64,000 nt of DNA from Dehalococcoidia bacterium (lineage in GTDB: Bacteria > Chloroflexota > Dehalococcoidia > Lucifugimonadales > UBA3495), in the NCBI GenBank assembly GCA_965261195.1, contig CBDHDC010000001.1, forward strand, positions 15,260 to 79,259. The letters run 5' to 3'. Numbering within the stretch: the stretch's first letter is position 1; every line of letters starts with the position of its first letter. This document shows positions 10,689 through 64,000 of the stretch, in pieces. Under the pieces are notes generated by a model. The model worked only from the letters and a program-made list of their open reading frames with translations, was not told the DNA's origin and did no database searches. The translations under genes were made by a program, and so were the position numbers.

Positions 10689-10690
10689 TA

Positions 10691-18770: not shown

Positions 18771-21700
18771 TTACCCCGCCACCCTGGTCTCCGTATCTCC
18801 CGCAGAGAATGCACTCATGTAAGCCAAGATAAGACTGCGGGTTCGGTAAGTGCCGAACTCGGCCTCGTCTTCCTTTTGCACGATGGGGAACGTGCTCAAT
18901 ATGTAGTCGGCGTCATCACGCGAAAGGCCGTAAAGACGGAAATAGAGTGCGTCGAGGCGAGCGCGCAGGTGTCGGCGCTCCTCCTCGTCCCAAATGAACG
19001 GCGGGCCGTCGCAGCCAAGGTCGCGAGCGAACGGGCCCATATCGTCGGCGGTATAGGTGAGCCGGAGCACGTGGTCCCGGACGAGGTCACGCGCAGTCGT
19101 CGTACCGAACTGCTGGCCGTAATCGTCAGGTGCAATGACGGGGAGCTGCTCTATGATGAACAAATTCAAAGTCTGGCCCTGTACTTTCTGCCGTGTCGCG
19201 AAGTCAAATACCATTGCGTTGAGATTGGCGGCCAGCAACCATTCATTGCGATTTGCCTGTTGTGGCTTGAAAATCGGCACCTTGTTTCCGAATCCGACCG
19301 TGGGGAACAGAGCGGCGATAAACGTCCTCGCATTCGTGGAGGCGGTGATTTCCTTGAATCCGAGAACCCATTCCGTTCCAGAATCCCATCCGCAATCAGA
19401 TGCCGGCACCCAGAACTGGGGCTCCGGCAACCAACCTGTATTGGCGTGTTCGGCGAGACTGGTTGCCCGCGGTTGAGCCGGCCGGTTCAGGTTTTGCGGA
19501 TTCACGACCACACTGGCGGCCCGGTGGTCGAACGCCTGCACCATCTTGCCCTCATACAGGGGCAGATACAGTTCCTCGCCCTTCTTCCAACGGTTACCTT
19601 CGACACGGTAGAATCCCTCGTTGTCCAGTTGCGCCGCAGTGCGGAACAGATGGGAGTCGTTGGTCATATGGAACATCGTGTGGTAACGCACCGGCCACGC
19701 CCTTCGTTCTCCACCGCCCGCCCGGTCCACCAATACCGGCTGCTGCTCATAGATGCGGCGCGTGATCTCAGCATCCCTTCGCGTGCGAAAAACCGGAGCT
19801 GTTCCGGTGTTGGGGTTCACCAGGTCGAAGTCCGCGGGGTCCAGCGCAAAGCAGCGTTCCGGATCCTCAATGGTATTGGAGTCGTGGAGGAAGAAGGCGC
19901 ACCGGGTTTCACCGAATCGTCGCTCTTCACCGCCGAATATCAGTGCGCAGAACTTGAACCGGGAGTCCACATCGGGGAAGAAGGGTGGGAGGTCTGTGCC
20001 GAGACGCCGGTTCTCGAAGTCGAACAGGCCGCCCAGGCGCCCGCTAGTGGAAACGGACTTGAAGAACTTAGCCGCGGTCTTGTCGGCATAGATGCCCGAC
20101 GGCGTCAGCAGCCCCACGATGCCATCGGGCTTGACCAACTCCATGGCGCGTTCAATAAACAGCGAGTAGAGGTTGATGTCGCCGCCGCCGAGCAGGGGAT
20201 AGTGTCCGGACGCGCGGACCATCTTGCCCAGGGTTTCGGCCCGTTCCTTCGCCGCGTCGAACTCGGACGCCAGGGGAGACCCGCTGGCGCGCAACCGGTC
20301 TACGCCGTTCTTCCGGGCGGCGGCGGTCGGAGCGTGGGCCAACTCCGGTGAGCGGGTGGCGAACCACTCCACCTCCTGCAGCTTGATCCGGTCCCAGGGC
20401 GGGTTGCCGATGACGGCGTCGAACCCGCCCTGGGGATGCGCGCTCTGCCAACTGTGCCAGACGCCGGGGAACGCGGCCTCCCAGTGCAGGAATCCCTCGC
20501 GCTCCGCGATGGACCTGGTCTCATTCCAAAGGTCGGTGAACGCTGACTCCAGGGGACTTCCGTCCGTAAACTCTCCCCGCGCCAGCAGGCTGTATGCTTC
20601 GTCCGGCTGCTCAGCGAGGGTGTCAACCAGCTGCGACTCGAAGGCTCGGCGCTCCCGCTGCTTCATGCCGGCGGTCAGCCAGCGCAAGCCGGTCAGGAGA
20701 TCCAGCAGGCTGCGCAGGTCCGCTGTAGTATCCTCCACTTCCTGGAACAGGGTGGCCGACTGCCTGACCTCCACGATGTCGGCGTCGGACATCTCCTCGA
20801 TACGCTCCATCCCATCCGTGGCGGCTTCCGCTCCGGTTATGGCTGAACTGGCGAACAGTCCGCCCAGACGGTTCAGTTCCGCAGTAGCTTCCATCACCCG
20901 CAGGCCGACCAGGGAGTCGCCGGAGCGCAGGTGGTGATCCAGAAAGGACAGCGGCGCGCCGACGGTGAAGCTGTGCAGCCACAGCGACACCTTAGCCAGT
21001 TCCACGGTCAGGGGGTTCTTGTCCGCACCGTAGATGCAGCGCTTGAGCACCATCCGCCGGATGATGGCCTGGTCGGTGAGTTGGGCCTGGTCCATCACCC
21101 AGTCCGCTGCCTGGGCCCGTTGGGCGATGTCCTGACGGATTGCGGCCACCCGCTCCACCAAAGGCGATACGTACTCGCCATCGAGCCACTCCGGAACCCC
21201 GGGCGCGTGTTCCACCATTTCAGCGATATAGTCGGACAGAAAATCGACGGCGGTGACCAGAAAGTGGCCGCTGCCCATGGCCGGGTCGAGCACCTTGAGG
21301 TCCAGTACCGCCTCGGCCGGGTCCAGCTGCAGCAACTCGGCATAGCGCTCGGCTTTGGGCCTGGGGTCGCCAGCCAACTCAACAGCCTTCTCCACGAAAG
21401 CCGCCAGCCGCTCCTCTGCCAGGGGCTTCAGGGTCTGGTCCACAATCAGATCGACCAGTTCCTGAGACGTGAAGAAGCTGCCGCTATCCTTGCGGGCGTA
21501 GCTGTTGGGGCGTGCGACGACCTTGCCATCGTCGTCCCAAACCGGCTCACGCTCCAGCAGGCGCTCGTAGATGGACCCCAACTGCTGGACCGACATATCT
21601 CGATAGTTGACGAAGCGCCGTCCCTCGGGGGTCTCGGTGTGGCTCAGGTCGTAGATTATCGGGGCAATCGCAGCATCGGGTAGACGGACGTTGGCCAACA

Positions 21701-22793
21701 GCGGAGCGGCCGCGTCGTTGAACAGGCCGCCGTTGTAGGGCGGCAGGCCGATGGCCGCGTCGCCCTGGTCAATGAGTTGGCTAAGCGTCATCAGGTGATC
21801 GTAGTAGTTAGTGGCTCGCGACGAGAGCGCCGAGCCGTCCGCCATCCGGCGGGCGATATCGTCCCGGACCGGTTTCCGCAGGCCGTAATCCTCATATCGA
21901 GAGTCGTTGACAGGAAGCAGGCCGCGGTCCTCGGCGTAGAGCACAAAGAGCAGTCGATAGAAGAGGATGAGCGCCGGCGCGCGGAGTTCCGCAAGCTCCT
22001 GCTGTTGTGTGTGCTCCGCCAGCGCCTGGACCAACCTCGGAAAGGCCCGCTCAAAGACCACGGCGGAGAGGTCCTGCGCCACCTGCTGTTCGTAACGCCG
22101 CCCCTCGGCCAGCGCCGTTTCCAGGAAGCTGACCGTGGCGCCCTCCTGCGCTTCGAATGAGTCGCGGCGGAATAGCAGGTAGAAGGTGCGGAGGCGGTCG
22201 GTATCGCCAGACTCCAGTATCTCGCCGAGGCTGGCCTCGAAGTAACCGGTGGCCCGGGGACGGGCGCGGTAGTCGTAGAGACGCCATACGCCGCCGTTGG
22301 TCAGAACCCCCCACCTGATGCGGCCCTCCGACTCGACCTCGGCCGTCGACAAATACCTGACTATCTGATCATGGGGCGTCGTGGCCTGGCGCCGGCCGTC
22401 CTGACCGCGGGCGTCCAGGGGAAGACCGAACCGCTTGCTCTCTTCCACCACAACAGCATCGCGGTAACGCTCTTCCGCGCTAGCTCTGGCGATGGTCAGT
22501 TCCTTGGCGTCAGCATCGGGAAACAGCAGGAGGTCCGGAATGTCTTCGTTCCGGGAGGCGCCTTGCTGTGGCAGGTAATCGGTCCATCCCAGCAGCTCCA
22601 GAACGGGACGGATCAGCTCCTGCTCGGTTACTGCTTCATTGGGGTCCTGAGCTTGCGACAAAGCGTGGTAGCTCTGCCTGACGCCGTTCCGGAATGCCTC
22701 GAACTCCAACTCAGAGGCGACCGATGTGTGCCACTCCGGCGTGGCTTTGATGCCGTCGGCGAGGAAGTAGTCGGTGAGTAAGCTGCCAGCCAT
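18771..22793 (-). CDS. type IIG (fused endonuclease / N6-adenine methyltransferase / TRD) restriction-modification enzyme, 1340 aa
   Basis: N-terminal PD-(D/E)xK motifs (IPDLLLF ... AVVVEESK ... WGVLTNGGVWRLY). SAM motif I VLDPAMGSGHFLV. Catalytic motif IV FDAVIGNPPWDRIK. A long C-terminal specificity-type region. Uninterrupted ORF. Confidence 0.8.
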   Translation of the reverse strand: MAGSLLTDYFLADGIKATPEWHTSVASELEFEAFRNGVRQSYHALSQAQDPNEAVTEQELIRPVLELLGWTDYLPQQGASRNEDIPDLLLFPDADAKELTIARASAEERYRDAVVVEESKRFGLPLDARGQDGRRQATTPHDQIVRYLSTAEVESEGRIRWGVLTNGGVWRLYDYRARPRATGYFEASLGEILESGDTDRLRTFYLLFRRDSFEAQEGATVSFLETALAEGRRYEQQVAQDLSAVVFERAFPRLVQALAEHTQQQELAELRAPALILFYRLLFVLYAEDRGLLPVNDSRYEDYGLRKPVRDDIARRMADGSALSSRATNYYDHLMTLSQLIDQGDAAIGLPPYNGGLFNDAAAPLLANVRLPDAAIAPIIYDLSHTETPEGRRFVNYRDMSVQQLGSIYERLLEREPVWDDDGKVVARPNSYARKDSGSFFTSQELVDLIVDQTLKPLAEERLAAFVEKAVELAGDPRPKAERYAELLQLDPAEAVLDLKVLDPAMGSGHFLVTAVDFLSDYIAEMVEHAPGVPEWLDGEYVSPLVERVAAIRQDIAQRAQAADWVMDQAQLTDQAIIRRMVLKRCIYGADKNPLTVELAKVSLWLHSFTVGAPLSFLDHHLRSGDSLVGLRVMEATAELNRLGGLFASSAITGAEAATDGMERIEEMSDADIVEVRQSATLFQEVEDTTADLRSLLDLLTGLRWLTAGMKQRERRAFESQLVDTLAEQPDEAYSLLARGEFTDGSPLESAFTDLWNETRSIAEREGFLHWEAAFPGVWHSWQSAHPQGGFDAVIGNPPWDRIKLQEVEWFATRSPELAHAPTAAARKNGVDRLRASGSPLASEFDAAKERAETLGKMVRASGHYPLLGGGDINLYSLFIERAMELVKPDGIVGLLTPSGIYADKTAAKFFKSVSTSGRLGGLFDFENRRLGTDLPPFFPDVDSRFKFCALIFGGEERRFGETRCAFFLHDSNTIEDPERCFALDPADFDLVNPNTGTAPVFRTRRDAEITRRIYEQQPVLVDRAGGGERRAWPVRYHTMFHMTNDSHLFRTAAQLDNEGFYRVEGNRWKKGEELYLPLYEGKMVQAFDHRAASVVVNPQNLNRPAQPRATSLAEHANTGWLPEPQFWVPASDCGWDSGTEWVLGFKEITASTNARTFIAALFPTVGFGNKVPIFKPQQANRNEWLLAANLNAMVFDFATRQKVQGQTLNLFIIEQLPVIAPDDYGQQFGTTTARDLVRDHVLRLTYTADDMGPFARDLGCDGPPFIWDEEERRHLRARLDALYFRLYGLSRDDADYILSTFPIVQKEDEAEFGTYRTRSLILAYMSAFSAGDTETRVAG

Positions 22794-41431: not shown

Positions 41432-42637
41432 TCAACCTTCAGCCGTTGGGGTGTGTTCGTAAGCCGGGGGAATGGTGTCAGCATCAGGCTGGACGGAGTT
41501 CTGATCTCCTGCGGGTTGACCGGCTTTGTCATGGCCATTTCCGGCTCGGATGTCGAGCATGAGATTTAGGCCTGACGTCCGTTCCAGCGCACTTTCGAGG
41601 TCTTTGAACATCCGGCGCTCCAGCCATGCAGCGGCCAATCCCGGGGCTGCGATGATGAAAACATCGCCATCGCGGGCTATACCCACGGTGTTCTTCACCC
41701 AAGCTTTAAAAGTGGGCTCTGGCAGTTGTTTCCGGATGTCTTCCAGCACCAAATCCCACATGGCTTTGGCCTCAGGGTCTGCTTCGGGAGGCTCAATCCA
41801 AGCCTGCTCAGGGGTAGGTTCCGGCGGATGCTGTCGGGGCTGGTCCCCGGCGTAGTCTGGGAGTCGGTTGGCGGTCTGCTGTTCTTTGATTGCTAGGACG
41901 TTGGTGATCTGGGCTTCCAGCTCATCGGGGTATTTCCTGTACCAAGCGATGGCGGTGTTGATGCCCTGCTTCCAGCTCTGGCCGAGATCGGGCCAGTGTT
42001 TACGGACCCTGGCGTCGATGTCGTTGGGGGTTGGGGACTGGGAGGGCACTTGGGCAGGTGGCGCGGCGGTGGTTAGTGGTGGCATTGGACTTTCAGTTGC
42101 CGCGTCCGGAGTTTGCGTATCGGCCGGGGTGTAATCCGGACCCGTTCCCCAGTTGGAGGTGGCTGTCGCGTCGCTGAGTGAGGAGCCGAGCCGGTCCTCG
42201 ACGAGGTCTTGAATCCGTAGACGGTAGGCTGCGAAGAGCTGTCCGGTCTCCCTGGAATTCTTCTCACGGGGCTGCCAGCTGTTGAGAATTCCGGACAGCC
42301 GGTAGACGTTGGACTGGTTGGGTTCCCCGGGAGCTCCTGGCCGCTGCTGCACGGAGATCAAGCCGAGGCTGGTCAGGTGTTGGATCGCGACTTTGATGGT
42401 GGAGGTTCCGGCAGCGTCGATGGCATCGGCGATGGTTCTATGTGAGGGCCAGGCGATGCCGTCGGCGTTGGCGTAGCGTGAGATGGCGATGAGGACGGCT
42501 CGGGTGGTGATGCTCAGGCGCGGGCCGGTGTTGGTGGCCCAGTTCACGATGGTGTCCAGGCCGATGGGTATGGTGATGGAACCGGAGGTCGAAAAGTCTT
42601 GAGAATTCGGCGCAAATGCGTTAATATTAGTGGGCAT
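41432..42637 (-). CDS. replication initiator-like protein (N-terminal winged helix + C-terminal DnaA_N-like domain)
   Basis: RAVLIAISRYANADGIAWPSHRTIADAIDAAGTSTIKVAIQHLTSLGLISV (Rep-type wHTH). C-terminus: MWDLVLEDIRKQLPEPTFKAWVKNTVGIARDGDVFIIAAPGLAAAWLERRMFKDLESAL (DnaA N-terminal domain pattern). Confidence 0.65.
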   Translation of the reverse strand: MPTNINAFAPNSQDFSTSGSITIPIGLDTIVNWATNTGPRLSITTRAVLIAISRYANADGIAWPSHRTIADAIDAAGTSTIKVAIQHLTSLGLISVQQRPGAPGEPNQSNVYRLSGILNSWQPREKNSRETGQLFAAYRLRIQDLVEDRLGSSLSDATATSNWGTGPDYTPADTQTPDAATESPMPPLTTAAPPAQVPSQSPTPNDIDARVRKHWPDLGQSWKQGINTAIAWYRKYPDELEAQITNVLAIKEQQTANRLPDYAGDQPRQHPPEPTPEQAWIEPPEADPEAKAMWDLVLEDIRKQLPEPTFKAWVKNTVGIARDGDVFIIAAPGLAAAWLERRMFKDLESALERTSGLNLMLDIRAGNGHDKAGQPAGDQNSVQPDADTIPPAYEHTPTAEG

Positions 42638-49287: not shown

Positions 49288-50189
49288 ATGCTCAGAAAGA
49301 TGACCAAGGCGCTGGCCGGGCTGGCGGTGGCCCTGATGATTCCCGGGCTGGCCTGCATGACCGGCGCCGCGCAACCGCAGCCCGCCGCCATCCCGGTCAC
49401 CACGGGGGAGGCCGCCGCCGCCGCCGTGGATGCCCAGATCCCCACGGTGAGGACGGAGCGGGCGGGACCGCAGCCCGCCGCCATCCCGGTCACCACGGGG
49501 GAGGCCGCCGCCGCCGCCGTGGATGCCCAGATCCCCACGGTGAGGACGGAGCGGGCGGGACCGCAGCCCCTGGTCAGCAGGATCCCACGTGGGAGGACCA
49601 TGGAGAGCAGTGGGGAATGATCCCCCATGACCGCCCGGGGAAGCCGGATACCATCACGACAACGGGCGCCGGGCGGGCCACGGCGGCGGCGGACGTCATA
49701 CGGATTCACCTGAGCGCGCTCCGGGACGGCGAGGATGCGGCGGCCGTGCTGGAAGCCGTCACCAGGGCGGCGGCCGCCATGACGGCCGAGGCGGAGCGGC
49801 TCGGGATCGCGCCGGAGGACATCAGCGCGGTGGGGCTGACGGTCACGGAGAAAATGGAGTACGAGCCCAGCGCCCGGCAGTGGGAGAGGAGGGGATATGC
49901 GGCAAGGCAGAGCGCCCTGCTGAAGGTCCAGGACACCGGCCAGGCGGGCAGGATCCTGGGAGCGGTGATCGAGGCGGGAAACCAGGCCGGCACGGGAAGC
50001 CGCATCCTCCTGGACGGGGTGAGCGCGGACATCCAGGACCGGACGGCCCTGCGGCTGGAGGCCGTGGCGGCTGCGGCCCGGAACATGTGGGACCAGGCGG
50101 AGCTGATCGCGCTGACGCCGGGACCGGGGATCTGCAGTCTCCTGGAGACACCGCCCCAAATACCCCCGGGATGGCCCCAGAATGGCTGA
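49288..50189 (+). pseudogene. SIMPL/BP26-like (DUF541) lipoprotein with a perfect 2 x 93-bp tandem repeat and a frameshift
   Basis: Signal peptide plus lipobox (MLRKMTKALAGLAVALMIPGLAC), then PQPAAIPVTTGEAAAAAVDAQIPTVRTERAG x2 (listed 49288..49620). The SIMPL-like body (PDTITTTGAGRATAAADVIRIHL...GYAARQSALLKVQDTGQAGRILGAVIEAG...) is in the frame of listed 49008..50189. Confidence 0.55.
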
Positions 50190-50630: not shown

Positions 50631-51287
50631 TTGTCAGCCATCGCGGTCTGTTCCATGAAGGGCGGCACCGGCAAGACCACTTTGGCATTGAACCTCACTG
50701 AGCGGGCCCATGCGTCGGGTCTGCGAGTGGCGGTCATTGACTTCGACCCTCAGGAGGGGGCCATTGGTCTTCTGGACCTGCGCGCCGGCCGCGAGCCGCC
50801 CTGGCCGGTCTTTGCCAGCCGGGTCAGCGTAGCCGGTGCCGAGAGTCTTACTGTGATGAAGTCCGGGGGCGATTATGACCTTCTGGTCTGCGACCTGCCC
50901 GGCTCGGATAGCATGGCCCTGGGCCGGCTTTTGATGGAGATGGAACTGATTCTGTCGCCAGTGGGGGCCAGCGCTGCCGAAGTGATTGTTGCGGCCAACT
51001 TCACACGGTTGGTTGAGCGGCTGAATTTGCCGGTGGTCTTTGTGCCGAACAATATTCCCGCGGGACGGGCGCGGCGTGAGGATCTGCTTCAGGAACTTGC
51101 CAGATTTTCTGATGATGTGTGCCCAGTGGCGGTACGGCACCGGGTGGCGCACCTGGACGCAACTCGCCTGGGGATGGGGGTCTGTGAGGCATTCCCGAAG
51201 TCGATCGCCGCCGGGGATATCAACTCCCTGTGGGAATGGGTGGCTGGGCGGATAAAACTTGATGTTGGAAACGGAGGCAATGAATAA
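50631..51287 (+). CDS. parA: ParA/Soj-family partition ATPase (second locus)
   Basis: TTG start after GGAGGTG. SAIAVCSMKGGTGKTTLALNLTERA, VAVIDFDPQ, LLVCDLPG. Confidence 0.85.
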   Translation: MSAIAVCSMKGGTGKTTLALNLTERAHASGLRVAVIDFDPQEGAIGLLDLRAGREPPWPVFASRVSVAGAESLTVMKSGGDYDLLVCDLPGSDSMALGRLLMEMELILSPVGASAAEVIVAANFTRLVERLNLPVVFVPNNIPAGRARREDLLQELARFSDDVCPVAVRHRVAHLDATRLGMGVCEAFPKSIAAGDINSLWEWVAGRIKLDVGNGGNE

Positions 51288-54017: not shown

Positions 54018-54119
54018 GTTGTTGGACGCCGACTATTGTTGAACGGGGTTGTTGGACACATCGGCGAGCGTGGGGATGGAATTTCTGCGGAGGTGTTCAA
54101 CAACGCCCGTTTGTTGAAC
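54018..54119. promoter_or_regulatory. res-like cluster of five (G/A/T)TTGTTG(G/A)AC repeats upstream of the recombinase stub
   Basis: Direct copies at 54018, 54035, 54048 and 54110. One inverted copy lies at 54093-54104. Confidence 0.5.
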
Positions 54120-54173
54120 GCCTCACCCCCAATGACGCCGGCCTGGGCCGGCCGGAGGAACCCCATGACCATG

Positions 54174-54329
54174 CTCCCAGTCACCTACGGCTACGCCCGG
54201 GTCAGCAAGGCCGACGACGATGCCAAGAACCTGGACACGCAGCTGCGCCTGCTGGCCAACCACGGCATACGCGATGACCTGATTTTCACCGACGTGGCCA
54301 GCAGCCTCACTATGGCGGTGGACCGGTGA
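54174..54329 (+). pseudogene. N-terminal stub of a serine recombinase (resolvase/invertase)
   Basis: MTMLPVTYGYARVSKADDDAKNLDTQLRLLANHGIRDDLIFTDVAS, followed by 7 unrelated residues and a stop. The catalytic Ser motif YARVS is present. Confidence 0.7.
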
Positions 54330-54398: not shown

Positions 54399-55367
54399 TC
54401 AGAGCAATCTCTTGTGACGCCGCACGTTCTGAGCCTTCCATTCCAGAAGCGGCTGGCCTTGGATGCGTTCCTGCAGCGTCTTATCGGAAGTCAGAATCGT
54501 CGCATCGATCTTCCCTTCATCCAGCAGCAGGTCCAGGAATGCTCGTTCGGCGTCATTGAAAGGCAACAGCGCGGACAGCGCCTCGCGGCATTCGTCCACA
54601 AGCATCCCGCCATAGCTGGCTGCTTCGATTCCCTGGATGCCGCCGGTGCGGAGCGCAGGCAAGAGTTGGCTGGACAGTTCCCTCGGGTCGAAAGCCACGT
54701 CTTCGACCGAGACCATGCGCCAGTCCTTCCGGTTCATCGCGCCGTAGACGACGAAAGCGGTTCGGAGCCTCTCAAAATCGAGGCCTTCTATGGAGAAGAT
54801 CAGGCGGCTATCGAAGAGGTCCCTGGCCTTTTGGCGTGCCAGAAGGGCAGTCAACTTTCCCGCCGCGAGCTCGTGAATGTCCACCACAGGGATGCCCGTA
54901 GCCCGCCAGCTTCCCAGGGAGTGGGAGTCCATCGTGGTAACCGGCCACAGTGGTACCCGGTACATGTAGTTGAGGTCTACGTCGATCCCGCCGCTCTGTC
55001 CTGAAGCGGTTGCATAGCGCAGTGACCACTTGCCTCCCGCGTGCTCTTCGGGCATCCGTCTGACCTCGAAGTCCTCACGGCTGAAGACGGCCTGCAGCGC
55101 GCCCTCGATCCTGGGGCGCTCCTGCAGCATGGCCTCTCGGTTCTGAGCGCCCACGTAGTTCAGGTCGATGTCCACCGACAGCCTCGGCACATTGAACACG
55201 AAGAGGTTCAATGCGGTCCCGCCCTTGAGGGCGAGCTTTCCGCCCAACAACGGGTGACTGCGAATGGCCTTTAGCAATCCCAGCAGATGGGCGGCCTTCT
55301 CCAGCACGTCCGCCCGGAATCCCGTCGCCCCGGCCTCTGCGGCCAGACTCTCGGAGGATATTTTCAT
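54399..55367 (-). CDS. abiEii: AbiEii/AbiGii-family nucleotidyltransferase toxin
   Basis: LALKGGTALNLFVFNVPRLSVDIDLNYVG. Start ATG 55367 after GGAGGTG. ATGA overlap with the upstream gene. Confidence 0.85.
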   Translation of the reverse strand: MKISSESLAAEAGATGFRADVLEKAAHLLGLLKAIRSHPLLGGKLALKGGTALNLFVFNVPRLSVDIDLNYVGAQNREAMLQERPRIEGALQAVFSREDFEVRRMPEEHAGGKWSLRYATASGQSGGIDVDLNYMYRVPLWPVTTMDSHSLGSWRATGIPVVDIHELAAGKLTALLARQKARDLFDSRLIFSIEGLDFERLRTAFVVYGAMNRKDWRMVSVEDVAFDPRELSSQLLPALRTGGIQGIEAASYGGMLVDECREALSALLPFNDAERAFLDLLLDEGKIDATILTSDKTLQERIQGQPLLEWKAQNVRRHKRLL

Positions 55368-56179
55368 GTCACCTCCGCCCAGGATCGCTCGGCGACTTCC
55401 GTCGGAACCACCAGGTTCCATTCGGCCACCAGGTTCCCCGAGCCGCGTCTGCTGCGGTCCAGGTAGTGGGGCTGCCGTGGGCGCCGGTCACGGAGCGCCT
55501 TGAGATGGCGCTCCTCGACCATCAGGATCTCGCGGTGCTGGTCAAAGAAGAAGCCCACCTTCGATGCCGTTGTCGCGTTGTCCAGCAGGAGCGCGTACTC
55601 CACGGCCTTTTCCAGGTCGAAGTACTCCACCGACTCCAGCGAGCGCCAGACCTCCTCCCAGCCCCCCGAGTGGTCTGGGCGGTCCAGAACATCCACCAGG
55701 GTACGCTCGAGGCTGGCAACCCTGAGCGGCATGCCGGCGCGTTCCCTGGTCAACACGCCGAAATGCTCCTTGCCGGAGCGGAGAAGCGCCTCCGGGAATC
55801 TCGTTCCACGGAAGACATGGGATCGGAACGTCAGCGGCTCCACTGGGCGCGATGCCAGATAGGTGAGATGTTGCCAGACCGAGTAAGCCCTGCCGTGGAA
55901 CTCAAGGGCCGTGTGGTGAGACAGGACGGAATCGCGAGTCAGCCTGGCGGCGACCAGGCAGGGGTCGACCGGATAGGTATCGCAGTCGGTTCCCGGCGGA
56001 ATGACGGCGAACAGCCCGCGCCGCACCCGGACGAGGCGTCCGGTCCTGGTGTGGTAGGCCAGCAGAGATTCCTGCGTTCTTGCTCCGGGTGGGCCGTTGG
56101 ATGAGAGATGCTCAGCCAATTCTTCCCCGGTGAACACCGGATGGCGGCGGAAGAAGGCATCGTGTTTGATGGCTGGCAT
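55364..56179 (-). CDS. abiEi: AbiEi-family antitoxin / transcriptional regulator
   Basis: FRRHPVFTGEELAEHL...TGRLVRVRRGLFAVIPPG plus the COG5340-like C-terminal domain. Its stop overlaps the toxin start (55364-55367). Confidence 0.8.
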   Translation of the reverse strand: MPAIKHDAFFRRHPVFTGEELAEHLSSNGPPGARTQESLLAYHTRTGRLVRVRRGLFAVIPPGTDCDTYPVDPCLVAARLTRDSVLSHHTALEFHGRAYSVWQHLTYLASRPVEPLTFRSHVFRGTRFPEALLRSGKEHFGVLTRERAGMPLRVASLERTLVDVLDRPDHSGGWEEVWRSLESVEYFDLEKAVEYALLLDNATTASKVGFFFDQHREILMVEERHLKALRDRRPRQPHYLDRSRRGSGNLVAEWNLVVPTEVAERSWAEVT

Positions 56180-56394
56180 TATTGTGCTTCTATCGAGACA
56201 CCCATGATTATGCTATGGGTATTGGGGGCTCGTGTCATTCGGTGCAGCCGCTGGCTTGACATACTGGCGTGGAACCCATATCCAACCTACGGGTTGTGCG
56301 TATAAATGTCAAGTGGAATGGGCGCAGGCGCTATCGGTGCAGGGTGGATGTCAAGGGCGGCGAGAAGGTGGACCTCGGTGATGGAACCGGACCG

Positions 56395-56490
56395 GTGTGA
56401 ATACGTCCAGCGGCGGGAGAACGTCATCTCCGCCGGTAATAGCGGCATAGGCAAGACTCATGTCGCCCTGGGGTTGGGCCTGCCCGCCTG
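56395..56490 (+). pseudogene. scrap of an IS21 istB helper ATPase
   Basis: ENVISAGNSGIGKTHVALGLGLPACQGG (IstB Walker A region) within listed 56306..56608. No flanking IstB sequence. Confidence 0.45.
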
Positions 56491-56610
56491 CCAGGGCGGG
56501 CTGGAGTGGACGAGAAACCAGGCATGGAACTTCCGTGCCAACTGCGCAAAAGAGGAAAACGATCTCAGACACATATACTTTACCCACATCGGACTGGAGG
56601 ACTATTGATC

Positions 56611-56922
56611 ATGGTATCAGAGCAACCACAACCCTCCGACCTTGACAGGTTCCACTTCGCGATTCACGACGGGAAAGCAGACGATTGTCCTGAGTGTAGA
56701 CACTCGACCGTCCAGGGAGCACACCACGCACCCCTCAAGCAACTCGACGACCTCGCGATCTTGGCCGAACTGCTGGCAGCCTTTGAACCGGGCTCTGAGG
56801 ACTACGAGGGGTTTCTGCCGGAGTTGGTTGCCGCAGCGGTGGCCTACGGGAAAGCGATTGGCGAGTGGAGACAAGTATGGGAGTACGGAGACCATGACTG
56901 CAAAGGGAAAGATTGCCTCTAA
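56611..56922 (+). CDS. hypothetical Cys-rich protein; same frame stays coding-like after TAA to 57132
   Basis: ATG 56611 after GGAGGA. MVSEQPQPSDLDRFHFAIHDGKADDCPECRHS... After TAA 56920-56922 the frame reads CEWKLEPPAWDPVELDCTLHPNCTVHTIQPCW... up to TGA at about 57130. Confidence 0.4.
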   Translation: MVSEQPQPSDLDRFHFAIHDGKADDCPECRHSTVQGAHHAPLKQLDDLAILAELLAAFEPGSEDYEGFLPELVAAAVAYGKAIGEWRQVWEYGDHDCKGKDCL

Positions 56923-57393
56923 TGTGAATGGAAGCTGGAGCCTCCGGCATGGGATCCTGTGGAACTGGACTGCACCCTCCACCCCAACTGCACGGTCCAC
57001 ACCATCCAGCCCTGTTGGGTGAGCCAAACCTGGGCCAATGTCCTCCACTACCTTGCCATGAACGGAGACCAGCCACTACCCGCCCACCTGACAGCACGAC
57101 ACGAACGTAAGCCCTTCAACGGGAATCCCTGAAGAAGGTCCCGGCGCTATCGTACGATTCTCCTTTTAAGCTCAACCTGAAGATCATTCGTCCGTCCTGC
57201 CAGTAGGGGAGAACGGCCCGGGACGATCCTGGAAGTTTGGGTCTGCTGCGGGTGCGGCCGGCGAATCTTCCCGAAAGCCTTCGTAGTCGCCACCGGAGGC
57301 TGTGGGGCGTGAACAGGCTCCTAAAGGCAGGTGCCGCCGCTGGTGAGGAGAAAGTTATGCTGAGTATGGACCCGATCAGCTTAACCCCCCGGC

Positions 57394-60300
57394 TCAGCTC
57401 AATCTCAACTCCTCGGACACCTCGGACAAGAGGGAGTTGATGGCGTCTACCACCTCAGGGCCGGGAGGGTTGTCTCCGCTCAACTCGACCCGAACGGTGA
57501 ACTGTACGGTATTGCCGATCGCGGCAGTGGTGATCCCTGGGATCTGGTCGGCCAGGTCCTGAATCCCGTGCGCTTCCAGGGTTGCCTCGGCGGTTAGAGT
57601 CCCCAACCGCTTCTGAGCGTGAGGCTGTTGACCATTGTCACGATTGATCGGCCCCGGTATCTGAATGACCACATGCTGTGCACCCGCGAAGTCGCAGGGC
57701 CACGCGCTGCTGTCAGGGGTTGGCTCAATCCATCGCGCCCGAATGCCGGAGTCGATGGCCGAACGGACCGTAGACCATGGCAACGTTTTGCCCCTTTTAA
57801 TTGATAGAGCCGTGCTTATGGCAAGGACGTTGGCCTTACCATCCTTCCAAGCTTCCGGGATCGATTCCGCGATCAACTCTTGCACGGCAACAGGGCCGGG
57901 TGGAACACATAGGGTCGCCGATGGGCCAAGGACTCCGTCGGGGACAGGCTCCTCGAAGATCGAAGCAGGGCCGTTAATCAGCCAGACCAACCCGTTCTGC
58001 ACGGCCTCTGCAACTGCCGCCTCGACCGCCGCGGCCTCGCATTTGGGGATGAAAAGGGTGTCCTCATATCCATCCCTTGGCACCGTCACCGAGTGGCCTC
58101 CGGCAAAGTAGCCGGTCACATCCTGAAGCGCGACCTCATCCGATGTCCAAATCCCTGGAAGTTGCTGGTAACGCAGCAGAGCAGGCTCAATCCCGCTGAG
58201 AGTCGCGGACTCGGGGAGAAACACTTCGAGAGCCGGATCGTTCAGGGCATTTTCATCAATCCCAGCGCGCCAAAACGTCTTGACCGTTCGGTCCGGCCGC
58301 ATCAACTGGGCCACCCAGATACCGTCCCGGACCCCTTGAACCACGGTATCCATTATCCCTTCGGGGTTCAGCATCTTGGGCAGCTTGGGAAACTGGGCGA
58401 AGGCGCCGACCAGGTCCTTGACCCGGCGAGAGCCTTCCCCTTGCCGCCACAGGTCGTAGGGTCCGCCGGGCAGCATCGCCTCCGAGCTAATCGCCGTTTC
58501 CTGTATCCTGGACCGCCGGTCGGCCTTGATGGTGATGAACAGGGGATCACCGCTGACCGCCACCCTGAAGGCCTGAATGTCGTTGCTTTCGTTTACGGTG
58601 ACCACAATGGAGTAGGCTTGCCGGATGGCCTCCGGAATGCGTCTCCTGGCCGCTTCGGTTTCACTGGCCAGCATCTGCTCGCGGATGGGGTCAACCGGCT
58701 GGCTTTTGAGAAGCTCACGAACCTCTTCCCAACCCAAGTACTCTCGGACCCGATTTCTAACTAAATCGAGTCCATCCCGGGATGGAACCGACAGTACGAT
58801 GGCGTTGCGGTTTACCCGGGGACGGTCCGCGGCGGTGGTGTCATTGATGTAGCGCCTCGCTTCGGGACTTGGCTTGCCGGATTCAGACGCCGCTTTTGGC
58901 CCCAGGACGGCGTAGTGGAACTCACCGTCGTCGGAGATGTCCCGGGGCCGGTCCGGGAGGTTGTGCACCCTTGCTCCCACAGCCGCCGCTCCGGCAGTCA
59001 GAAATCGCTGCTTCCCGATATGGTCGGTTACCTGTGCTTCGACGCGGTTGGCCGGTACGCGGTTCAAGCAGGCGTCGTCGTGCATCTGACGCAGGTTGGG
59101 GCGATTGCCCAACCGCCAAGCCTTGGGCAACTGCCTCGCCCCATCCGGGCCAACTTCTGCGGTGCCCACTTCCACTTCGTCCAGAAACCAGGACAACTCG
59201 GTCCAGCGGAGCAACGCCTTCTCCAGCTCAATCTTGTCCGGGTTCGTTGCTCCAATTAGCACGGTCAACTCGTGGGTGAGGACTTTCTGGCCGATGGGTT
59301 GCGAACTCAGGAACACGGAGACTACGGCCTGCTCCATTTCCCGTTGTCGAAGCCCGGTGGATTCAGCCTGGATGGCGCGGGCCTTGGCCAACTCGCCCTC
59401 CAGGATGGGCCGCCATTCCTGGTGACTTCCGGTGCCGGTGTCGATGCTGGCCAGGGATGCCAGTTCACCGGCGGACTCCGCCAGGTCTACCGCACCCGGC
59501 TGGTTCAAGAACACGTTCGGCCCGATTAGCGGGCTGGAGTCCCATTTTTCGGCGTCTCGAAGAGCGATGGCGAAGGTGCGCAGAATGCCACGGGTCCGCT
59601 GAAATCCGTCAAGTTGGGTCCACCGGGTGTAAAAAACCTCGGTAAGATCAGGGTGAAAGGGATAACTGCCCAGGTAGCGATCTTCAGCCGATGGGCGCTC
59701 CTTCTGAGTCTGTTCATCCAGTGCGGCAATGTTGCCGACGACCGAAGTCACATGCGGCCGGAAGGCGCCGGGATCGCGAATCGATTCCGGCTTGAAGAAG
59801 CGGCGCCGCAGGACTTCCGATACGTCCTCCTTGCTGACCGGGTTGACGGTTGGCTCTATCTGTCTGCCGAACACATCGGACACATCGCTGAGAAGCTCCC
59901 GGCCCAAGTCGTCGTTCTTCCGGGGGTCGGAGGCTAGAAGCGAGGCCACCATGGCGCACCGGTCCACCTTGACCACCGCCTGGGTGAGGTACTGGAAGAA
60001 GTTCACCAAGTGTATGCGGGAGGATGGGTCGATCTCGGCCTTGCCGCGGAGATACATGAGCACTTCGTCCAGAAGCACCAGGGTCGAAAGCCCTTCCTCC
60101 TGGGGCTTGGACAGCAGTTCCACCATCTGCGGTTCCGCCGGCGGCGTTTCCCGTTCCTCGTCCCTGCCCTCGGCGTGGATTAGTCTCAGGCCATCCGCTC
60201 CGGCTATCTGGAAGGCCAGCACGCTCCATGGATGCTTGAGCATCCTGAGCGCGCCATCCGGTCCGGGGGTATCTATACCCTTCTCCATGTCGATCTTGTC

Positions 60301-60711
60301 GAAGCACAGCGCCGCCACCCGGGCCCTGGGGGGCTGAAACCCGATGTGGGCCTTGAACTCCTGGATGGCGGGCAAGTCGGGCAGGCCGTCCGGGTCATGC
60401 GCCAGGTGCCGGAGGGTGATCAGCGTGTGGGTCTTGCCGCCGCCGTAGTTAACCAAGAGCTTCCGGTAGGCCTTGTCGCTCCGCCCCGCCAGGCGCAGGC
60501 AGACGTCCTTGACCAGATCTCGCAGGTTGTACGTGGGATAGGTGAGGGCGAAGAACTCGGCGGGGTTTTCGTAGACCGGCCGCTGGCCCTTCTGTATCAC
60601 TACGTCATACAGGTCGGCGGCGAATATGGACAGCGAGAGCTCGCCGGTCTTCAGGTCGTCCCGCAGTTCTACTGCCTCATGCCAGGGCTTCAATGCCGCT
60701 TTCTGTGCCAT
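57394..60711 (-). CDS. DUF499-type (BrxC/PglY-like) P-loop ATPase, 1105 aa
   Basis: KPWHEAVELRDDLKTGELSLSIFAADLYDVVIQKGQRPVYENPAEFFALTYPTYNLRDLV...LLVNYGGGKTHTLITLRHL. GAGG lies in the 11-nt spacer after the upstream stop. Confidence 0.8.
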   Translation of the reverse strand: MAQKAALKPWHEAVELRDDLKTGELSLSIFAADLYDVVIQKGQRPVYENPAEFFALTYPTYNLRDLVKDVCLRLAGRSDKAYRKLLVNYGGGKTHTLITLRHLAHDPDGLPDLPAIQEFKAHIGFQPPRARVAALCFDKIDMEKGIDTPGPDGALRMLKHPWSVLAFQIAGADGLRLIHAEGRDEERETPPAEPQMVELLSKPQEEGLSTLVLLDEVLMYLRGKAEIDPSSRIHLVNFFQYLTQAVVKVDRCAMVASLLASDPRKNDDLGRELLSDVSDVFGRQIEPTVNPVSKEDVSEVLRRRFFKPESIRDPGAFRPHVTSVVGNIAALDEQTQKERPSAEDRYLGSYPFHPDLTEVFYTRWTQLDGFQRTRGILRTFAIALRDAEKWDSSPLIGPNVFLNQPGAVDLAESAGELASLASIDTGTGSHQEWRPILEGELAKARAIQAESTGLRQREMEQAVVSVFLSSQPIGQKVLTHELTVLIGATNPDKIELEKALLRWTELSWFLDEVEVGTAEVGPDGARQLPKAWRLGNRPNLRQMHDDACLNRVPANRVEAQVTDHIGKQRFLTAGAAAVGARVHNLPDRPRDISDDGEFHYAVLGPKAASESGKPSPEARRYINDTTAADRPRVNRNAIVLSVPSRDGLDLVRNRVREYLGWEEVRELLKSQPVDPIREQMLASETEAARRRIPEAIRQAYSIVVTVNESNDIQAFRVAVSGDPLFITIKADRRSRIQETAISSEAMLPGGPYDLWRQGEGSRRVKDLVGAFAQFPKLPKMLNPEGIMDTVVQGVRDGIWVAQLMRPDRTVKTFWRAGIDENALNDPALEVFLPESATLSGIEPALLRYQQLPGIWTSDEVALQDVTGYFAGGHSVTVPRDGYEDTLFIPKCEAAAVEAAVAEAVQNGLVWLINGPASIFEEPVPDGVLGPSATLCVPPGPVAVQELIAESIPEAWKDGKANVLAISTALSIKRGKTLPWSTVRSAIDSGIRARWIEPTPDSSAWPCDFAGAQHVVIQIPGPINRDNGQQPHAQKRLGTLTAEATLEAHGIQDLADQIPGITTAAIGNTVQFTVRVELSGDNPPGPEVVDAINSLLSEVSEELRLS

Positions 60712-60722
60712 GATGACCTCGC

Positions 60723-61289
60723 TTATGTTGCCCGAACGGCAGTCGCCAGCCGCCGGGCTAGGGAATCAAAGTCCTCGGGACATTTTTGACGGATGGCGCG
60801 AATCCTCCGGGATGCCTCTGCTCCCAGGGCCTGCCGCCCGCCTCCAGTGGCGCCGGCCAGGCCGCGTCGGACGGCCAACGGCTCAAAATATCGTTCCTTA
60901 ACATCGACCTCTGCACGAACGTCCGCCCACCGCCAGTCGCCGGGTAGGTCCAATCCAGCCAGCACCCAAGTCTCTATCTCTTCCCAGGCATTCTCGGCGA
61001 AGAATGCCGCTCCGAACAGCGATTCAAGCTCATCGAGTCTTTGGCGCCGCCCAGCGCTGCCATCCCGGTCAACGCACAGAATGAAGATGTCGGTCATTCC
61101 CCTTTGGCCGTTGACAATTTCTGCAAGTTGGGCGGTCTTGAGAGCTTCCCCAACGCCGCCGAGCAATGGGTCCCGACAGACCTCAACCCGCGGGTTAGGG
61201 GCTCCGAGGTGCTTGAATAGCCGGGAAACCAGTGGTTTGAGGATGTATTGGTCGTTGCGGAAGTCCTCGGGGATGACCAATATGTTCAT
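60723..61289 (-). CDS. TOPRIM-like small protein (DUF4276/RloB-like), 188 aa
   Basis: MNILVIPEDFRNDQYILKPL (acidic residue at the end of beta-1) and IFILCVDRDG (DxD). The ATG at 61289 overlaps the upstream TGA (61286-61289 = ATGA). The family call is an inference. Confidence 0.55.
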   Translation of the reverse strand: MNILVIPEDFRNDQYILKPLVSRLFKHLGAPNPRVEVCRDPLLGGVGEALKTAQLAEIVNGQRGMTDIFILCVDRDGSAGRRQRLDELESLFGAAFFAENAWEEIETWVLAGLDLPGDWRWADVRAEVDVKERYFEPLAVRRGLAGATGGGRQALGAEASRRIRAIRQKCPEDFDSLARRLATAVRAT

Positions 61290-62593
61290 TGGAGCACTCC
61301 CTGTTCCCAATCATCCTGGTCATCGTCCAAGTGGTCCGTGTCGGAGTCTCCCTCCGAAAACTTCATTGCAGTCTCAAACCATCCACTGGTGAGAAGCCGT
61401 TCCAAGCCTTGGGACTCTCGCAACTCCCGAAGATTGTACAAACCCGCTATGGGTCGGATGACGCTGTCGGTCCAGTATTCGTCACGGTAAACGACGGAGG
61501 TATGCTCAAAGGTTGTGTCATTCATCCATGCCAACAGTGCGGGCGAGTGGGTGGTAGTAACAACCTGGATTTTGCCCTTTGCGGTTTGCTGCTCAATAAG
61601 GTCAAGGAGAAGCCAAAGCCGGTTCGGGTGGATGCCGTTGTCTATCTCCTCAAAGAAGTAGAGACCCCCTTCGTTAGGATCCAGCAGCGCGGCAAGTATG
61701 CCCAAGAATCGCAGGGTGCCGTCGGAGGCGCTGTAGGCGGACACCTTGCGCCCGTTGCGCTCCACGATGTGGAGATGGACCCGCCCGCTGGGGTCGCGGG
61801 GAAAATCGAAGTCCTTGACATCCATAGGGGTAAGTTCTTGCAACCACGACATTAGGTTCCTTTCCTGCGCGGAGTCGGCGCAGATCGACTCCAAGACCGT
61901 CGGCAGGTTTTGACCATAGTCGCCCAGCGTCGTTGCGCCGGGGATAGAGGGCTCGCGCATTCGCTCGGGTGACAGTTCCAAGAAGTGCATTTTCTGAAGA
62001 ATCTGCAGAAAGCCAGGGTCGGGCACCAGTGATAAATACTCCTCATAATTGGCCTTGTAATGCCCAAAAAATTGACTCACGGCCGGTTGTGATCTGCTGA
62101 TTTCAATCGAAAGTCTGGTCATTAACAGCCGAACCAATAGACGATCTTCGTCTGATTCACCGTTCGGTATATGGGTGTTGTAGATTTCCCCCGATTCGGT
62201 CGTTAGCCTTTCTCCTAACAACCTATATCCGTCTGGACCGAACGCATCGAACCACACGGCTATCGAGTAGAAGTTTTTCTCTCCTACAGTTTCGTCCGTT
62301 TCCACATCCAAAGAAAAAGTGGAGTGCGGGATGCTGAACTCTGGGTCTATCCGACCAATTTCATTCGGCGCCCCGCGAATCCCTGACCACTCCAGTTGCC
62401 CGCCCGGCCCGTACTTCCCACCTATAATCTCCGCGAGGGTGTACCCCCGACCGATGCCGTGGAGGAAGCGGAAGGCGTCGCGGATGTTGCTCTTGCCGCT
62501 GGCGTTGGCGCCCACGATTATGGTGAACGGTCCGACCTTCAGCGTTTCGTCGGCGAAATTCTTGAAGTTGACCATGCGAACCGACTTAATCAT
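61286..62593 (-). CDS. ABC/SMC-type ATPase (AAA_15/AAA_21-like), 435 aa
   Basis: MIKSVRMVNFKNFADETLKVGPFTIIVGANASGKSNIRDAF (Walker A), SDGTLRFLGILAAL (signature-like), LYFFEEIDNGIHP (Walker B), VVTTTHSP. The true start at 62593 overlaps the methylase stop (ATGA). The listed 62809 start is an upstream extension. Confidence 0.8.
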   Translation of the reverse strand: MIKSVRMVNFKNFADETLKVGPFTIIVGANASGKSNIRDAFRFLHGIGRGYTLAEIIGGKYGPGGQLEWSGIRGAPNEIGRIDPEFSIPHSTFSLDVETDETVGEKNFYSIAVWFDAFGPDGYRLLGERLTTESGEIYNTHIPNGESDEDRLLVRLLMTRLSIEISRSQPAVSQFFGHYKANYEEYLSLVPDPGFLQILQKMHFLELSPERMREPSIPGATTLGDYGQNLPTVLESICADSAQERNLMSWLQELTPMDVKDFDFPRDPSGRVHLHIVERNGRKVSAYSASDGTLRFLGILAALLDPNEGGLYFFEEIDNGIHPNRLWLLLDLIEQQTAKGKIQVVTTTHSPALLAWMNDTTFEHTSVVYRDEYWTDSVIRPIAGLYNLRELRESQGLERLLTSGWFETAMKFSEGDSDTDHLDDDQDDWEQGVLQ

Positions 62594-64000
62594 GGCGTTT
62601 CCCCAAGCATGGGTTGTCTGTAGCGTGGCGCGCGCACGTCGCCGTAGGCGGCGGCATGGTTGCTCAGGGCTTCCAGGATGGCTCGCTCGTCGGAGCCGGC
62701 GGGGGCTAGTTCGATGAGCGCTTGGATTATCTGGTGGAACAGCGCATTTCGTTGAAGCCCGCGGCTGTCCAGATATTCGTTTACCCTCACCTGATCCCCT
62801 GCCCGCCACAGCTGCATCAGCTTGTGCATCTGGTCGATGAGAGGAACGGGCCGGCCACCCACTCCTTCCAGTCCCAGATTCCTGCCTCGCCTCTGGTTCC
62901 AGGCTTTCAGCTTTACCTTGGCGCCACCCCCGCTCTCCCCATCATCTGCATTCTCGGACGGTTCGCCTTCCGGTTCATCGGATGCCGAGCCATTGCGGGA
63001 TTGGGCCAGCATATCGTGTTGGTTCACCAGCGCCGAGTCGGAGAGATTGCACGACATGGCGTAGAGTATGCACCCGCCCACCGGCGCGGCATCCAGGCCG
63101 AAGTCGTGGCGGTGCAGCAGATAGTAAGTGGTCACGTCGTCCAAGCCGGTAACAGCCTCTTCGCCGTCCTGGGTTAACACCCGGCCCACGACGAAGTCCA
63201 CCACCATACGCCGGACCTCCCGCAGGAAATCCGAGACGCTCATAATCTCGTCCGGGGCGTTGGCCTTCTTGACCACCGGGTGCTTGCTGAAGGCTTCCAG
63301 GGCGGGGCCGGTGGCGGCCCATACGAAGTCCGGGCCCCGAATGCCGGCGTCCCAGAAGTCCCGGAGTTTCTGGGTGATGTTCTCCCGCATCTCCTCAAGG
63401 ACGATATTATCCCAGCCAGGGCGGGATGGCGGCCGCTTCTTGCAGACAAGCCAGACAGACGAGGCTAGGGCTGCGGAGCCGATGGCTCGGTTGCGACTGC
63501 CCCTCTCAGTCTGGATTGGCCAGGAACCATCGACCACAAATCCTGCCCGTATCAAGGCCGCAACAAGAGTCTCCCACGCATCGGGTTGCTTGTTGGCGAA
63601 CACAACGACGAACCGCCCATCTTTTTGCAGCGCAGCGAGGCAAGCCTGAAACGCTCTGGCCATGCCGTCCTCGTAATTCCTCTTAGACAGCGCTTGGTCA
63701 CCTTGAAATCGGCTGGCATCATCAATCAACTCGCCGTCGCCGGTGCAATGATTCCATTTGGGACCAAGGTGTTCCCGAAAGGCGGCGTCTACCTCGTGGG
63801 AAAGCCCATGCGCCGCTCGCCGAAGCCAAACATAGAAAAAATCCATACAGTCTGAGTAGGGGATTGCGTCATAGTACGGTGGGTCGGTGATGATAACGTC
63901 GTATTCTCCCGATGACTTATTTGCACTAACGTTCTTTGTGCTTGGCGTTTCCGGTAATTGAGATGATTCGAGCGCGTGGGTGATAAAGCGTGACACCCAA
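62590..64000 (-). CDS. DUF1156-type DNA methyltransferase, N-terminus beyond the right edge
   Basis: YDVIITDPPYYDAIPYSDCMDFFYVWLRR (DPPY catalytic motif in the DUF1156 context), RFVVVFANKQPDAWETLVAALIRAGF. The frame is still open at 64000. Confidence 0.75.
   Translation of the reverse strand, partial: WVSRFITHALESSQLPETPSTKNVSANKSSGEYDVIITDPPYYDAIPYSDCMDFFYVWLRRAAHGLSHEVDAAFREHLGPKWNHCTGDGELIDDASRFQGDQALSKRNYEDGMARAFQACLAALQKDGRFVVVFANKQPDAWETLVAALIRAGFVVDGSWPIQTERGSRNRAIGSAALASSVWLVCKKRPPSRPGWDNIVLEEMRENITQKLRDFWDAGIRGPDFVWAATGPALEAFSKHPVVKKANAPDEIMSVSDFLREVRRMVVDFVVGRVLTQDGEEAVTGLDDVTTYYLLHRHDFGLDAAPVGGCILYAMSCNLSDSALVNQHDMLAQSRNGSASDEPEGEPSENADDGESGGGAKVKLKAWNQRRGRNLGLEGVGGRPVPLIDQMHKLMQLWRAGDQVRVNEYLDSRGLQRNALFHQIIQALIELAPAGSDERAILEALSNHAAAYGDVRAPRYRQPMLGETP

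Follow-up and report, generated by a model that had tools for sequence, protein, structure and literature searches.

In a 64,000-nucleotide stretch of DNA from a Dehalococcoidia bacterium (assembly GCA_965261195.1, contig CBDHDC010000001.1, positions 15,260 to 79,259), which we call the window and whose coordinates and strands we use throughout, two adjacent genes lie between the methylase and ATPase genes of an Hma (helicase-methylase-ATPase) defence system. They encode an ATP-binding cassette (ABC)-type ATPase and a protein of 188 amino acids (aa) that resembles DUF4276 and TOPRIM proteins. Our preferred reading, to which we assign a probability of roughly 0.65, is that the two genes make up a self-contained defence-type module, of the same kind as HEC-01, PARIS and OLD, embedded in a complete eight-gene Hma operon. 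Hma is a described system (Payne et al., 2021; Payne, Hughes, Fineran & Jackson, 2024, bioRxiv 10.1101/2024.01.29.577857), and embedded genes occur in 62.7% of 1485 Hma systems, the commonest embedded family being ABC ATPases that are accompanied by TOPRIM (HEC-01), NERD (HEC-02) or PIN (HEC-03) proteins (Payne et al., 2024; 10.1101/2024.01.29.577857). The arrangement that we describe is an instance of this published class of ABC ATPases with TOPRIM partners embedded in Hma. An earlier note on the same DNA had known of no description of it; that suggestion of novelty falls, as such embedding is already published and catalogued in PADLOC as HEC-01.

The last four genes of the operon fill positions 57394 to 64000, all on the minus strand, and the list of open reading frames (ORFs) agrees with the earlier note in placing four co-directional frames there. 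Furthest upstream is the 3′ part of hmaB (62590..64000), the last ~470 codons of a gene for a 1064-aa DUF1156 N6-adenine DNA methylase with a DPPY motif. Its frame is open to the window edge at 64000 (the codon at 63999-63997 is TGG, with no stop) and ends with a stop codon at 62590-62592. There follow the gene for the ABC-type ATPase of 435 aa (61286..62593, coding 62593..61289), the gene for the divergent 188-aa DUF4276/TOPRIM-like protein (60723..61289, coding 61289..60726) and hmaC (57394..60711, coding 60711..57397), which encodes a 1105-aa DUF499 P-loop ATPase and is the operon's final gene. An ATGA stop/start overlap joins hmaB to the ATPase gene at 62593-62590, and another joins the ATPase gene to the 188-aa gene at 61289-61286. 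At the third junction, the TAA of the 188-aa gene, an 11-nt Shine-Dalgarno-like spacer (gcGAGGtcatc, 60712..60722) and the hmaC ATG at 60711 stand in succession. The junction sequences are thus those that had been claimed, two ATGA overlaps and an 11-nt spacer with GAGG, and the motifs DPPYYD, GGGKTH, GANASGKSN, FFEEIDNGIHP, ILVIPED and CVDRDG, all listed beforehand, are present in the translations. The spacer is identical or near-identical in the embedded loci L002 to L008 (L001 being the locus on the source contig, and L002 to L081 the related loci). A consensus scan of positions 56000-64000 gave no internal promoter- or terminator-like sites above the shuffled expectation; this null is compatible with a single transcription unit, but such a scan is weak evidence for a non-model phylum.

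The remainder of the operon lies beyond the window. The ABC ATPase matches exactly a protein on the 87,240-bp ENA contig ERZ25068833:ctg57104_5x_c, and on this contig the locus is a complete Hma system of eight genes with two embedded cassettes. Gene 1 is hmaA (L001 1391-5047), whose 1218-aa product carries HTH_3, SNF2, Helicase_C and NOV_C domains and matches PADLOC HmaA at 2e-158; the earlier note had guessed that a helicase would be found past position 64000, and HmaA, as first gene of the operon, is that helicase. Genes 2 to 4 encode a zeta-toxin/AAA_33-like P-loop kinase (173 aa), a 73-aa ORF and a DUF2806 protein (344 aa). Gene 5 is the full-length hmaB, supplying the methylase N-terminus that the note had sought beyond the window; its complete 1064-aa product matches PADLOC HmaB at 1.4e-116 and Pfam DUF1156 at 2e-17, and the fragment within the window matches PADLOC HmaB at 2e-37. 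Genes 6 to 8 are those for the ABC ATPase, the 188-aa protein and HmaC. The last, with its GGGKTH P-loop, matches PADLOC HmaC at 3.2e-70 (residues 6-795) and Pfam DUF499 at 2.1e-15, and the NCBIfam model DUF499_antiphage at 5.4e-22, under that model's cutoff. These profile matches bear out the proposed DUF1156 and DUF499 flanks and the name Hma, which the note had given as unverified; the operon has eight genes where the note counted four, and includes a second embedded cassette. Together with the many clusters homologous to the 188-aa ORF (see below), the E values speak against frames that are open by chance. In HmaA, an XRE-type HTH_3 domain (residues 17-60) is N-terminal to the SNF2-rel_dom helicase, and NOV_C/DUF3883 is at the C-terminus.

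The published definition of Hma allows at most three embedded genes per gap (Payne et al., 2024). The operon falls within it, as there are three embedded genes in the hmaA|hmaB gap and two in the hmaB|hmaC gap, all on one strand. Compared with Hma as described, HmaA, HmaB and HmaC are all present and co-directional, with strong PADLOC matches, and nothing essential differs; what sets this copy apart is its place on an 87-kb, apparently circular and plasmid-like contig of an uncultured host, probably one of the Chloroflexota, and its two different cassettes at once.

We looked for relatives of the pair in a scan of one genome per species, which returned 432 genomes with a relative, and examined the best 80 loci with 10-kb flanks. 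An ATPase homologue lies directly 5′ of the 188-aa gene in all 80, and the stop/start overlap between the two is 4 nt in 79 of 81 loci (L001 counted) and 1 nt in the other two. The ATPase and the 188-aa protein are an obligate, translationally coupled unit. The earlier note had proposed a survey of neighbourhoods for inserted pairs, and the same placement between hmaB and hmaC recurs in 25 of the 80 loci. Two further loci have hmaC downstream and no hmaB, one of them on a short contig, and in the remaining 53 there is no Hma gene within 10 kb. The recurrent neighbour clusters inspected at these free-standing loci include LepA, major facilitator superfamily and ABC transporters, and AcrB, and look housekeeping-like, as judged by reading the sequences. 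In the 25 loci with both flanks, the pair never occupies the hmaA|hmaB junction. More distant ABC-ATPase genes do so in L020, L028, L038, L064 and L069. Some Hma loci carry two to four paralogous ABC-ATPase genes (L044, L069, L030, L025 and L041); L069 has copies at -3, -1, +1 and +2. The same junctions thus hold stacked cassettes.

On a neighbour-joining tree of the pair (ATPase and 188-aa protein, without bootstrap), the embedded state changes an approximate 15 times, compared with 22.4 on average, and never fewer than 16, among 500 random labellings. The embedded state thus shows some clustering but also many switches. A single ancient insertion followed by vertical inheritance was considered as sole explanation and rejected, given the 15 scattered changes on the tree. 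Two loci retain traces of past embedding. L041 has an intact pair beside a decayed hmaC 5′ end (10574-10830) of 253 nt, ~90% identical to that of L025, in which the start codon is mutated from ATG to AGG and an in-frame stop is present. L043 has an intact pair with an hmaB 3′ fragment (8488-8703) and the conserved 11-nt spacer (10574-10584). This Hma debris indicates that some solo pairs arose through loss of the surrounding Hma genes. Across the embedded loci, the pair and its Hma flanks show correlated divergence: rho is 0.55 with HmaB and 0.60 with HmaC (Mantel p 0.001), and 0.85 between HmaB and HmaC themselves. This indicates that the block is often inherited together.

The hosts of the pair include Chloroflexota/Dehalococcoidia, Latescibacterota, Binatota, Alpha- and Gammaproteobacteria, Acidobacteriota, Nitrospirota, Gemmatimonadota and Actinomycetota. 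Members of the 188-aa family are 63-80% identical to the query across at least 8 phyla, nearly all in uncultured metagenome-assembled genomes (MAGs), and this level of identity across many phyla points to frequent horizontal transfer. The loci surveyed show neither a transposase nor an integrase travelling with the pair. The small protein is better conserved (mean 70% identity) than its ATPase partner (59%). Judging by isolate naming, many of the relatives' MAGs may come from marine sponge or symbiosis metagenome projects.

The 435-aa protein is an ATPase of the ABC type. It has a Walker A motif (GANASGKSN), a Walker B motif (FFEEID) and an H-loop (TTTHS). Its best PADLOC match is PDC-M07A, at 9.4e-65, in which residues 1-414 align to model positions 1-411 of 432. 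It matches HEC-01A models at 5.9e-38 to 6e-23 and PADLOC mad3 at 5.9e-22. Two AriA models are also matched, PDLC02980 at 1e-33 with the best stretch in the C-terminal lobe (residues 274-355), and PDLC02979 at 1.9e-17 in the N-terminal part only. In Pfam the ATPase matches AAA_21 (4.4e-33), as well as AAA_15 and SMC_N. The NCBIfam MAD3 model (NF047739) gives 85.1 bits, under its cutoff of 420 bits.

The identity of the 188-aa protein was approached through its family, which comprises 3018 clusters in a 90%-identity database (E≤1e-3) and 627 representatives in a 50%-identity library, and which carries no name in any source that the searches returned. Conservation was assessed in 78 diverse members, each of which was also scanned singly against profile models. 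E8, D13 and E106 are invariant among the 78, and at least 90% share D74, R75, D76, E104, W108, K131 and E132. Pfam DUF4276 (PF14103) is matched by 42 of the 78 (E≤1, best 2e-7) and RloB by eight, and any other Pfam family by one or two relatives only. In PADLOC, 26 of the 78 match the HEC-01B model PDLC04210 (best 1e-6) and others match further HEC-01B models; four match mad4. PDC-M07B is matched neither by any of the 78 (E≤0.1) nor by the 188-aa protein.

We aligned the family with that of HEC-01B, for which the reference was the experimentally tested DUF4276 protein WP_060782632.1 and its family. With hhalign the two families align over 122 columns (E 0.0016, probability 16%), in a register that places E8, D74xD76 and E104xE106 of the 188-aa protein on the HEC-01B catalytic motifs: IPED aligns to LLEE, VDRDG to RDQDS and QEiEvWxLAG to RELEtFYLAD. 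An hhalign of a low-diversity alignment against the single HEC-01B sequence failed; the comparison succeeded only with diverse profiles on both sides. HEC-01B is itself a DUF4276/TOPRIM protein with a metal site resembling that of OLD (Payne et al., 2024).

An AlphaFold2 (AF2) model from a diverse alignment has a pLDDT score (predicted local distance difference test) of 97.8, with an alternating beta-alpha core and a helical C-terminal half. Its strands span residues 2-7, 34-37, 68-74 and 96-101, so that E8 stands after strand 1 and D74-R-D76 closes strand 3. Toprim proteins, to which DUF4276 and RloB have been assigned, have a Glu after beta1 and a DxD after beta3 in a three-layer alpha/beta fold (PMC12065111), and the model agrees with this in its motif positions. 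The only structural hint from Foldseek came from BFVD, where the top match was a viral RloB-like protein (E 0.013, probability 0.96); two DnaG-type TOPRIM matches there had E values of ~0.8-0.9. Sequence-profile searches of PDB, with close and with diverse alignments, returned nothing meaningful. From transitive sequence evidence and motif topology, we assign the 188-aa protein, as a predicted and divergent member, to the DUF4276/RloB branch within the Toprim superfamily; it is a putative metal-dependent nuclease effector. The earlier note's inserted pair of an ABC ATPase and a TOPRIM-like protein stands for the ATPase by direct profile matches; for its partner it holds solely through relatives, as no model matches that protein directly. 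As current models miss this subfamily, HMM-based annotation with Pfam, PADLOC or NCBIfam leaves the gene unassigned.

Among named systems, the pair is closest to HEC-01, with which it shares the ATPase-first order of two genes, the gene overlap, embedding in Hma and an ATPase match to HEC-01A. It differs in that the ATPase fits PDC-M07A better and the 188-aa protein matches no HEC-01B model. The possibility that the cassette was already a named system, which the earlier note had raised against itself, is thus nearly realized: HEC-01 is catalogued, but the ATPase here lies nearer to PDC-M07A and its partner is not captured. PDC-M07 is a PADLOC candidate, a FAM_00005>>FAM_01367 cassette embedded in BREX, DISARM or type I restriction-modification (R-M) systems. 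It provides the best full-length ATPase match, and its ATPase family, FAM_00005, also occurs in HEC-01 and HEC-02; its second gene, FAM_01367, is of a different family from ours. Membership of PDC-M07 was rejected on the lack of a match to the B component. A literature search for PDC-M07 found no paper.

PARIS often lies inside or near R-M loci. It resembles the pair in having an ABC ATPase followed by a small TOPRIM-type protein, and there is partial AriA similarity in the ATPase here. In PARIS, an AriA hexamer holds three AriB; binding of Ocr releases AriB, which dimerises and cleaves tRNA-Lys (PMC11464382). AriB, however, is a 35-kDa TOPRIM of the DUF4435 type (~300 aa), whereas the protein here is of 21 kDa and 188 aa and is DUF4276-like. 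Neither it nor its 78 relatives matched AriB in PADLOC, and DUF4435 is absent from the 25 Pfam families most matched by these relatives. We therefore rejected membership of PARIS, the effector family being wrong. MADS shares with our locus an ABC ATPase and a DUF4276 protein inside a methylase-based multi-gene defence operon, with weak mad3 and mad4 matches. In MADS, mad3 (the ABC ATPase) and mad4 are required, deletion of either abolishing defence, and mad5 can be deleted without lethality only together with mad2 or mad3; Mad4 is homologous to DUF4276 (PMC12065111). Unlike the situation here, MADS has the core genes mad6-8, and MAD6, MAD7 and MAD8 are mandatory in its definition. None of the eight operon proteins matched mad6 or mad7, and mad8 was matched by the kinase only, marginally (0.0097). 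With core genes absent and the MAD3 score under cutoff, membership of MADS was likewise rejected.

A self-contained module is favoured by the intact free-standing pairs, which make obligatory dependence on Hma unlikely: the pair looks like something other than an obligate Hma guard, and is plausibly an autonomous, PARIS-like module. By analogy with PARIS and the OLD family, an oligomer of the ATPase would hold the small TOPRIM nuclease inactive and sense a phage-derived trigger. ATP-dependent release or activation would then allow the nuclease to cut nucleic acid, whether tRNA or DNA, leading to abortive infection. Hma itself would act as a methylation-based restriction-like system, and embedding would provide the pair with co-transcription and co-transfer. 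The pair would be a second layer of defence and no required subunit of Hma.

Several observations weigh against this interpretation. As the 80 loci are the most query-like of the 432, they give a biased embedded fraction. Roughly a third of the pairs sampled sit at the same hmaB|hmaC junction and co-diverge with their flanks, which would also fit a functional connection with Hma. In E. coli assays, no protection was seen from HEC-01 (Payne et al., 2024), leaving the defence activity of the class unproven. The assignment of the 188-aa protein is also exposed: no Pfam, PADLOC or NCBIfam model matches the protein directly, with thresholds as loose as E≤10, the hhalign probability given above is low at 16%, and Foldseek against PDB placed no TOPRIM in the top 50 (best E 0.036 with the pLDDT-97.8 model). 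A second model, of pLDDT 82, gave a best E of 0.026 against PDB, and the matches of both models were generic flavodoxin- and Rossmann-like folds (E>0.02), with no TOPRIM.

The ties to Hma could also mean that the pair is functionally wired to it, as a missing nuclease effector or as a guard, with the 188-aa protein representing an unrecognised TOPRIM subfamily of ~3000 clusters. If so, this wiring would be the reason for the exclusive hmaB|hmaC position, the two-sided translational coupling and the co-divergence. We regard this broader proposal as rather unlikely; position specificity and co-divergence make the guard and integral-effector ideas somewhat more attractive. As a guard, the pair would monitor Hma or anti-restriction proteins and fire when Hma is inhibited, in the manner of PARIS with Ocr or PrrC with EcoprrI. 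PARIS is triggered by Ocr, an anti-restriction DNA mimic (PMC11464382); here the pair is translationally coupled to both hmaB and hmaC, all 25 loci with both flanks place it between them and never at hmaA|hmaB, its divergence tracks theirs, and the embedded share of about one third compares with 0.7% for Septu (Payne et al., 2024). A guard is nonetheless unlikely in our estimation: 53 of 80 pairs have no Hma gene within reach of the 10-kb flanks, the recurrent neighbour clusters that we read by eye showed no R-M-like genes, and a diffusible anti-restriction protein could be sensed without any physical link to Hma, so that embedding is not specific evidence for a guard. The pair might alternatively be an integral subunit, the nuclease effector of a methylation-based system in this Hma lineage, comparable to mad3/mad4. 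The loss of defence on deletion of those genes, the DUF4276 homology of Mad4, the mad3 match of our ATPase and the mad4 matches of some relatives of the 188-aa protein all speak for such a role. So do the conserved junctions and co-divergence with the Hma flanks, and the finding that the core Hma proteins matched no classical nuclease-family model in our searches, although HmaA has a C-terminal NOV_C/DUF3883 domain of unknown function. Yet embedded genes are lacking in 37% of Hma systems, and in others these positions hold hundreds of different cassettes (Payne et al., 2024). The pair also remains intact where hmaC has decayed (L041) and where Hma is absent, and its NCBIfam MAD3 score is far below cutoff; an integral subunit seems to us improbable.

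A role outside defence altogether would make the pair a selfish addiction module, toxin-antitoxin (TA)-like, or a mobile cassette with no anti-phage function that hitch-hikes in an often-exchanged locus. The Pfam description of AAA_21, 'putative AbiEii toxin, type IV TA', would suit this, as would the negative HEC-01 assays and the frequent horizontal transfer suggested by identities across phyla. We hold it to be very unlikely, as no transposase or integrase accompanies the pair in the surveyed loci, the architecture matches the proven defence systems PARIS, OLD, Gabija, HEC-04 and MADS, and embedding in defence operons predicted a defence function for seven of nine tested candidates (Payne et al., 2024). 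A self-contained defence-type module thus remains our preferred reading of the pair.

The second cassette of the operon (L001 5047-6813) occupies the hmaA|hmaB gap and consists of the kinase, the 73-aa ORF and the DUF2806 protein, whose starts overlap or abut the preceding genes. Against PADLOC it gave nothing significant, the marginal mad8 match of the kinase being the lone one. L002 carries the same kinase/73-aa/DUF2806 cassette at 92-96% identity, and in L005 and L065 DUF2806 alone stands at the hmaA|hmaB junction. The part of the Payne et al. (2024) supplements that was consulted has no entry for DUF2806. By guilt-by-embedding, we count the cassette as a defence candidate that is not yet catalogued.

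The final base of the 87,240-bp contig falls at window position 58430, and the window extends beyond this point, in keeping with a circular replicon. The suffix '_c' of the contig name, in hifiasm naming style, we infer to mean circular. The replicon is most likely a plasmid with several defence systems. Plasmid-type functions in the window include a Rep-like protein with HTH_36 and DnaA_N domains (41432-42637, minus strand) and ParA (50631-51287, plus strand), and a perfect 93-bp tandem duplication (2.1 copies, 49374-49569) lies just upstream of ParA. Genes for an AbiEi-like antitoxin and an AbiEii nucleotidyltransferase toxin (54399-56179, minus strand) lie about 1.2 kb downstream of hmaC; the antitoxin matches AbiEi_4 weakly, at 5.3e-05 and under the Pfam cutoff, and the toxin matches AbiEii at 1.7e-33. 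This AbiE pair is another defence/TA module on the same replicon. Between the AbiE pair and the Hma operon are two short plus-strand ORFs that resemble pieces of genes from mobile elements: one (54036-54329), with no Pfam match, has by eye a serine-recombinase-like N-terminus (YGYARVSK...), and the other (56306-56608), also by eye, has an IstB-like P-loop (NSGIGKTH). Further away is a gene for a 1340-aa Eco57I-like/N6_Mtase fusion, type IIG R-M-like (18771-22793, minus strand). The family of this enzyme is found, split, on L082 (ERZ25068833:ctg44710_5x_l), a 16.7-kb linear contig from the same sample. L082 also has the same luciferase-like monooxygenase as window positions 11290-12342, similar-looking neighbouring Pfam families and a DDE_3 transposase. 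It probably represents one section of our replicon in variant or duplicated form.

These findings leave the picture of bacterial immunity unaltered, and add a complete and clean case of one defence system embedded in another, an idea that is published and that PADLOC already incorporates. Its unusually strong bias towards the hmaB|hmaC junction makes the pair well suited to asking whether embedded modules are independent of, or cooperate with, their host system. Our analysis also exposes a large family, invisible to Pfam, PADLOC and NCBIfam, of divergent DUF4276/TOPRIM-like partners of ABC ATPases. As this family is missed by the models, ATPase/TOPRIM modules would be under-counted in defence censuses, especially in uncultured Chloroflexota, Latescibacterota, Binatota and similar lineages.

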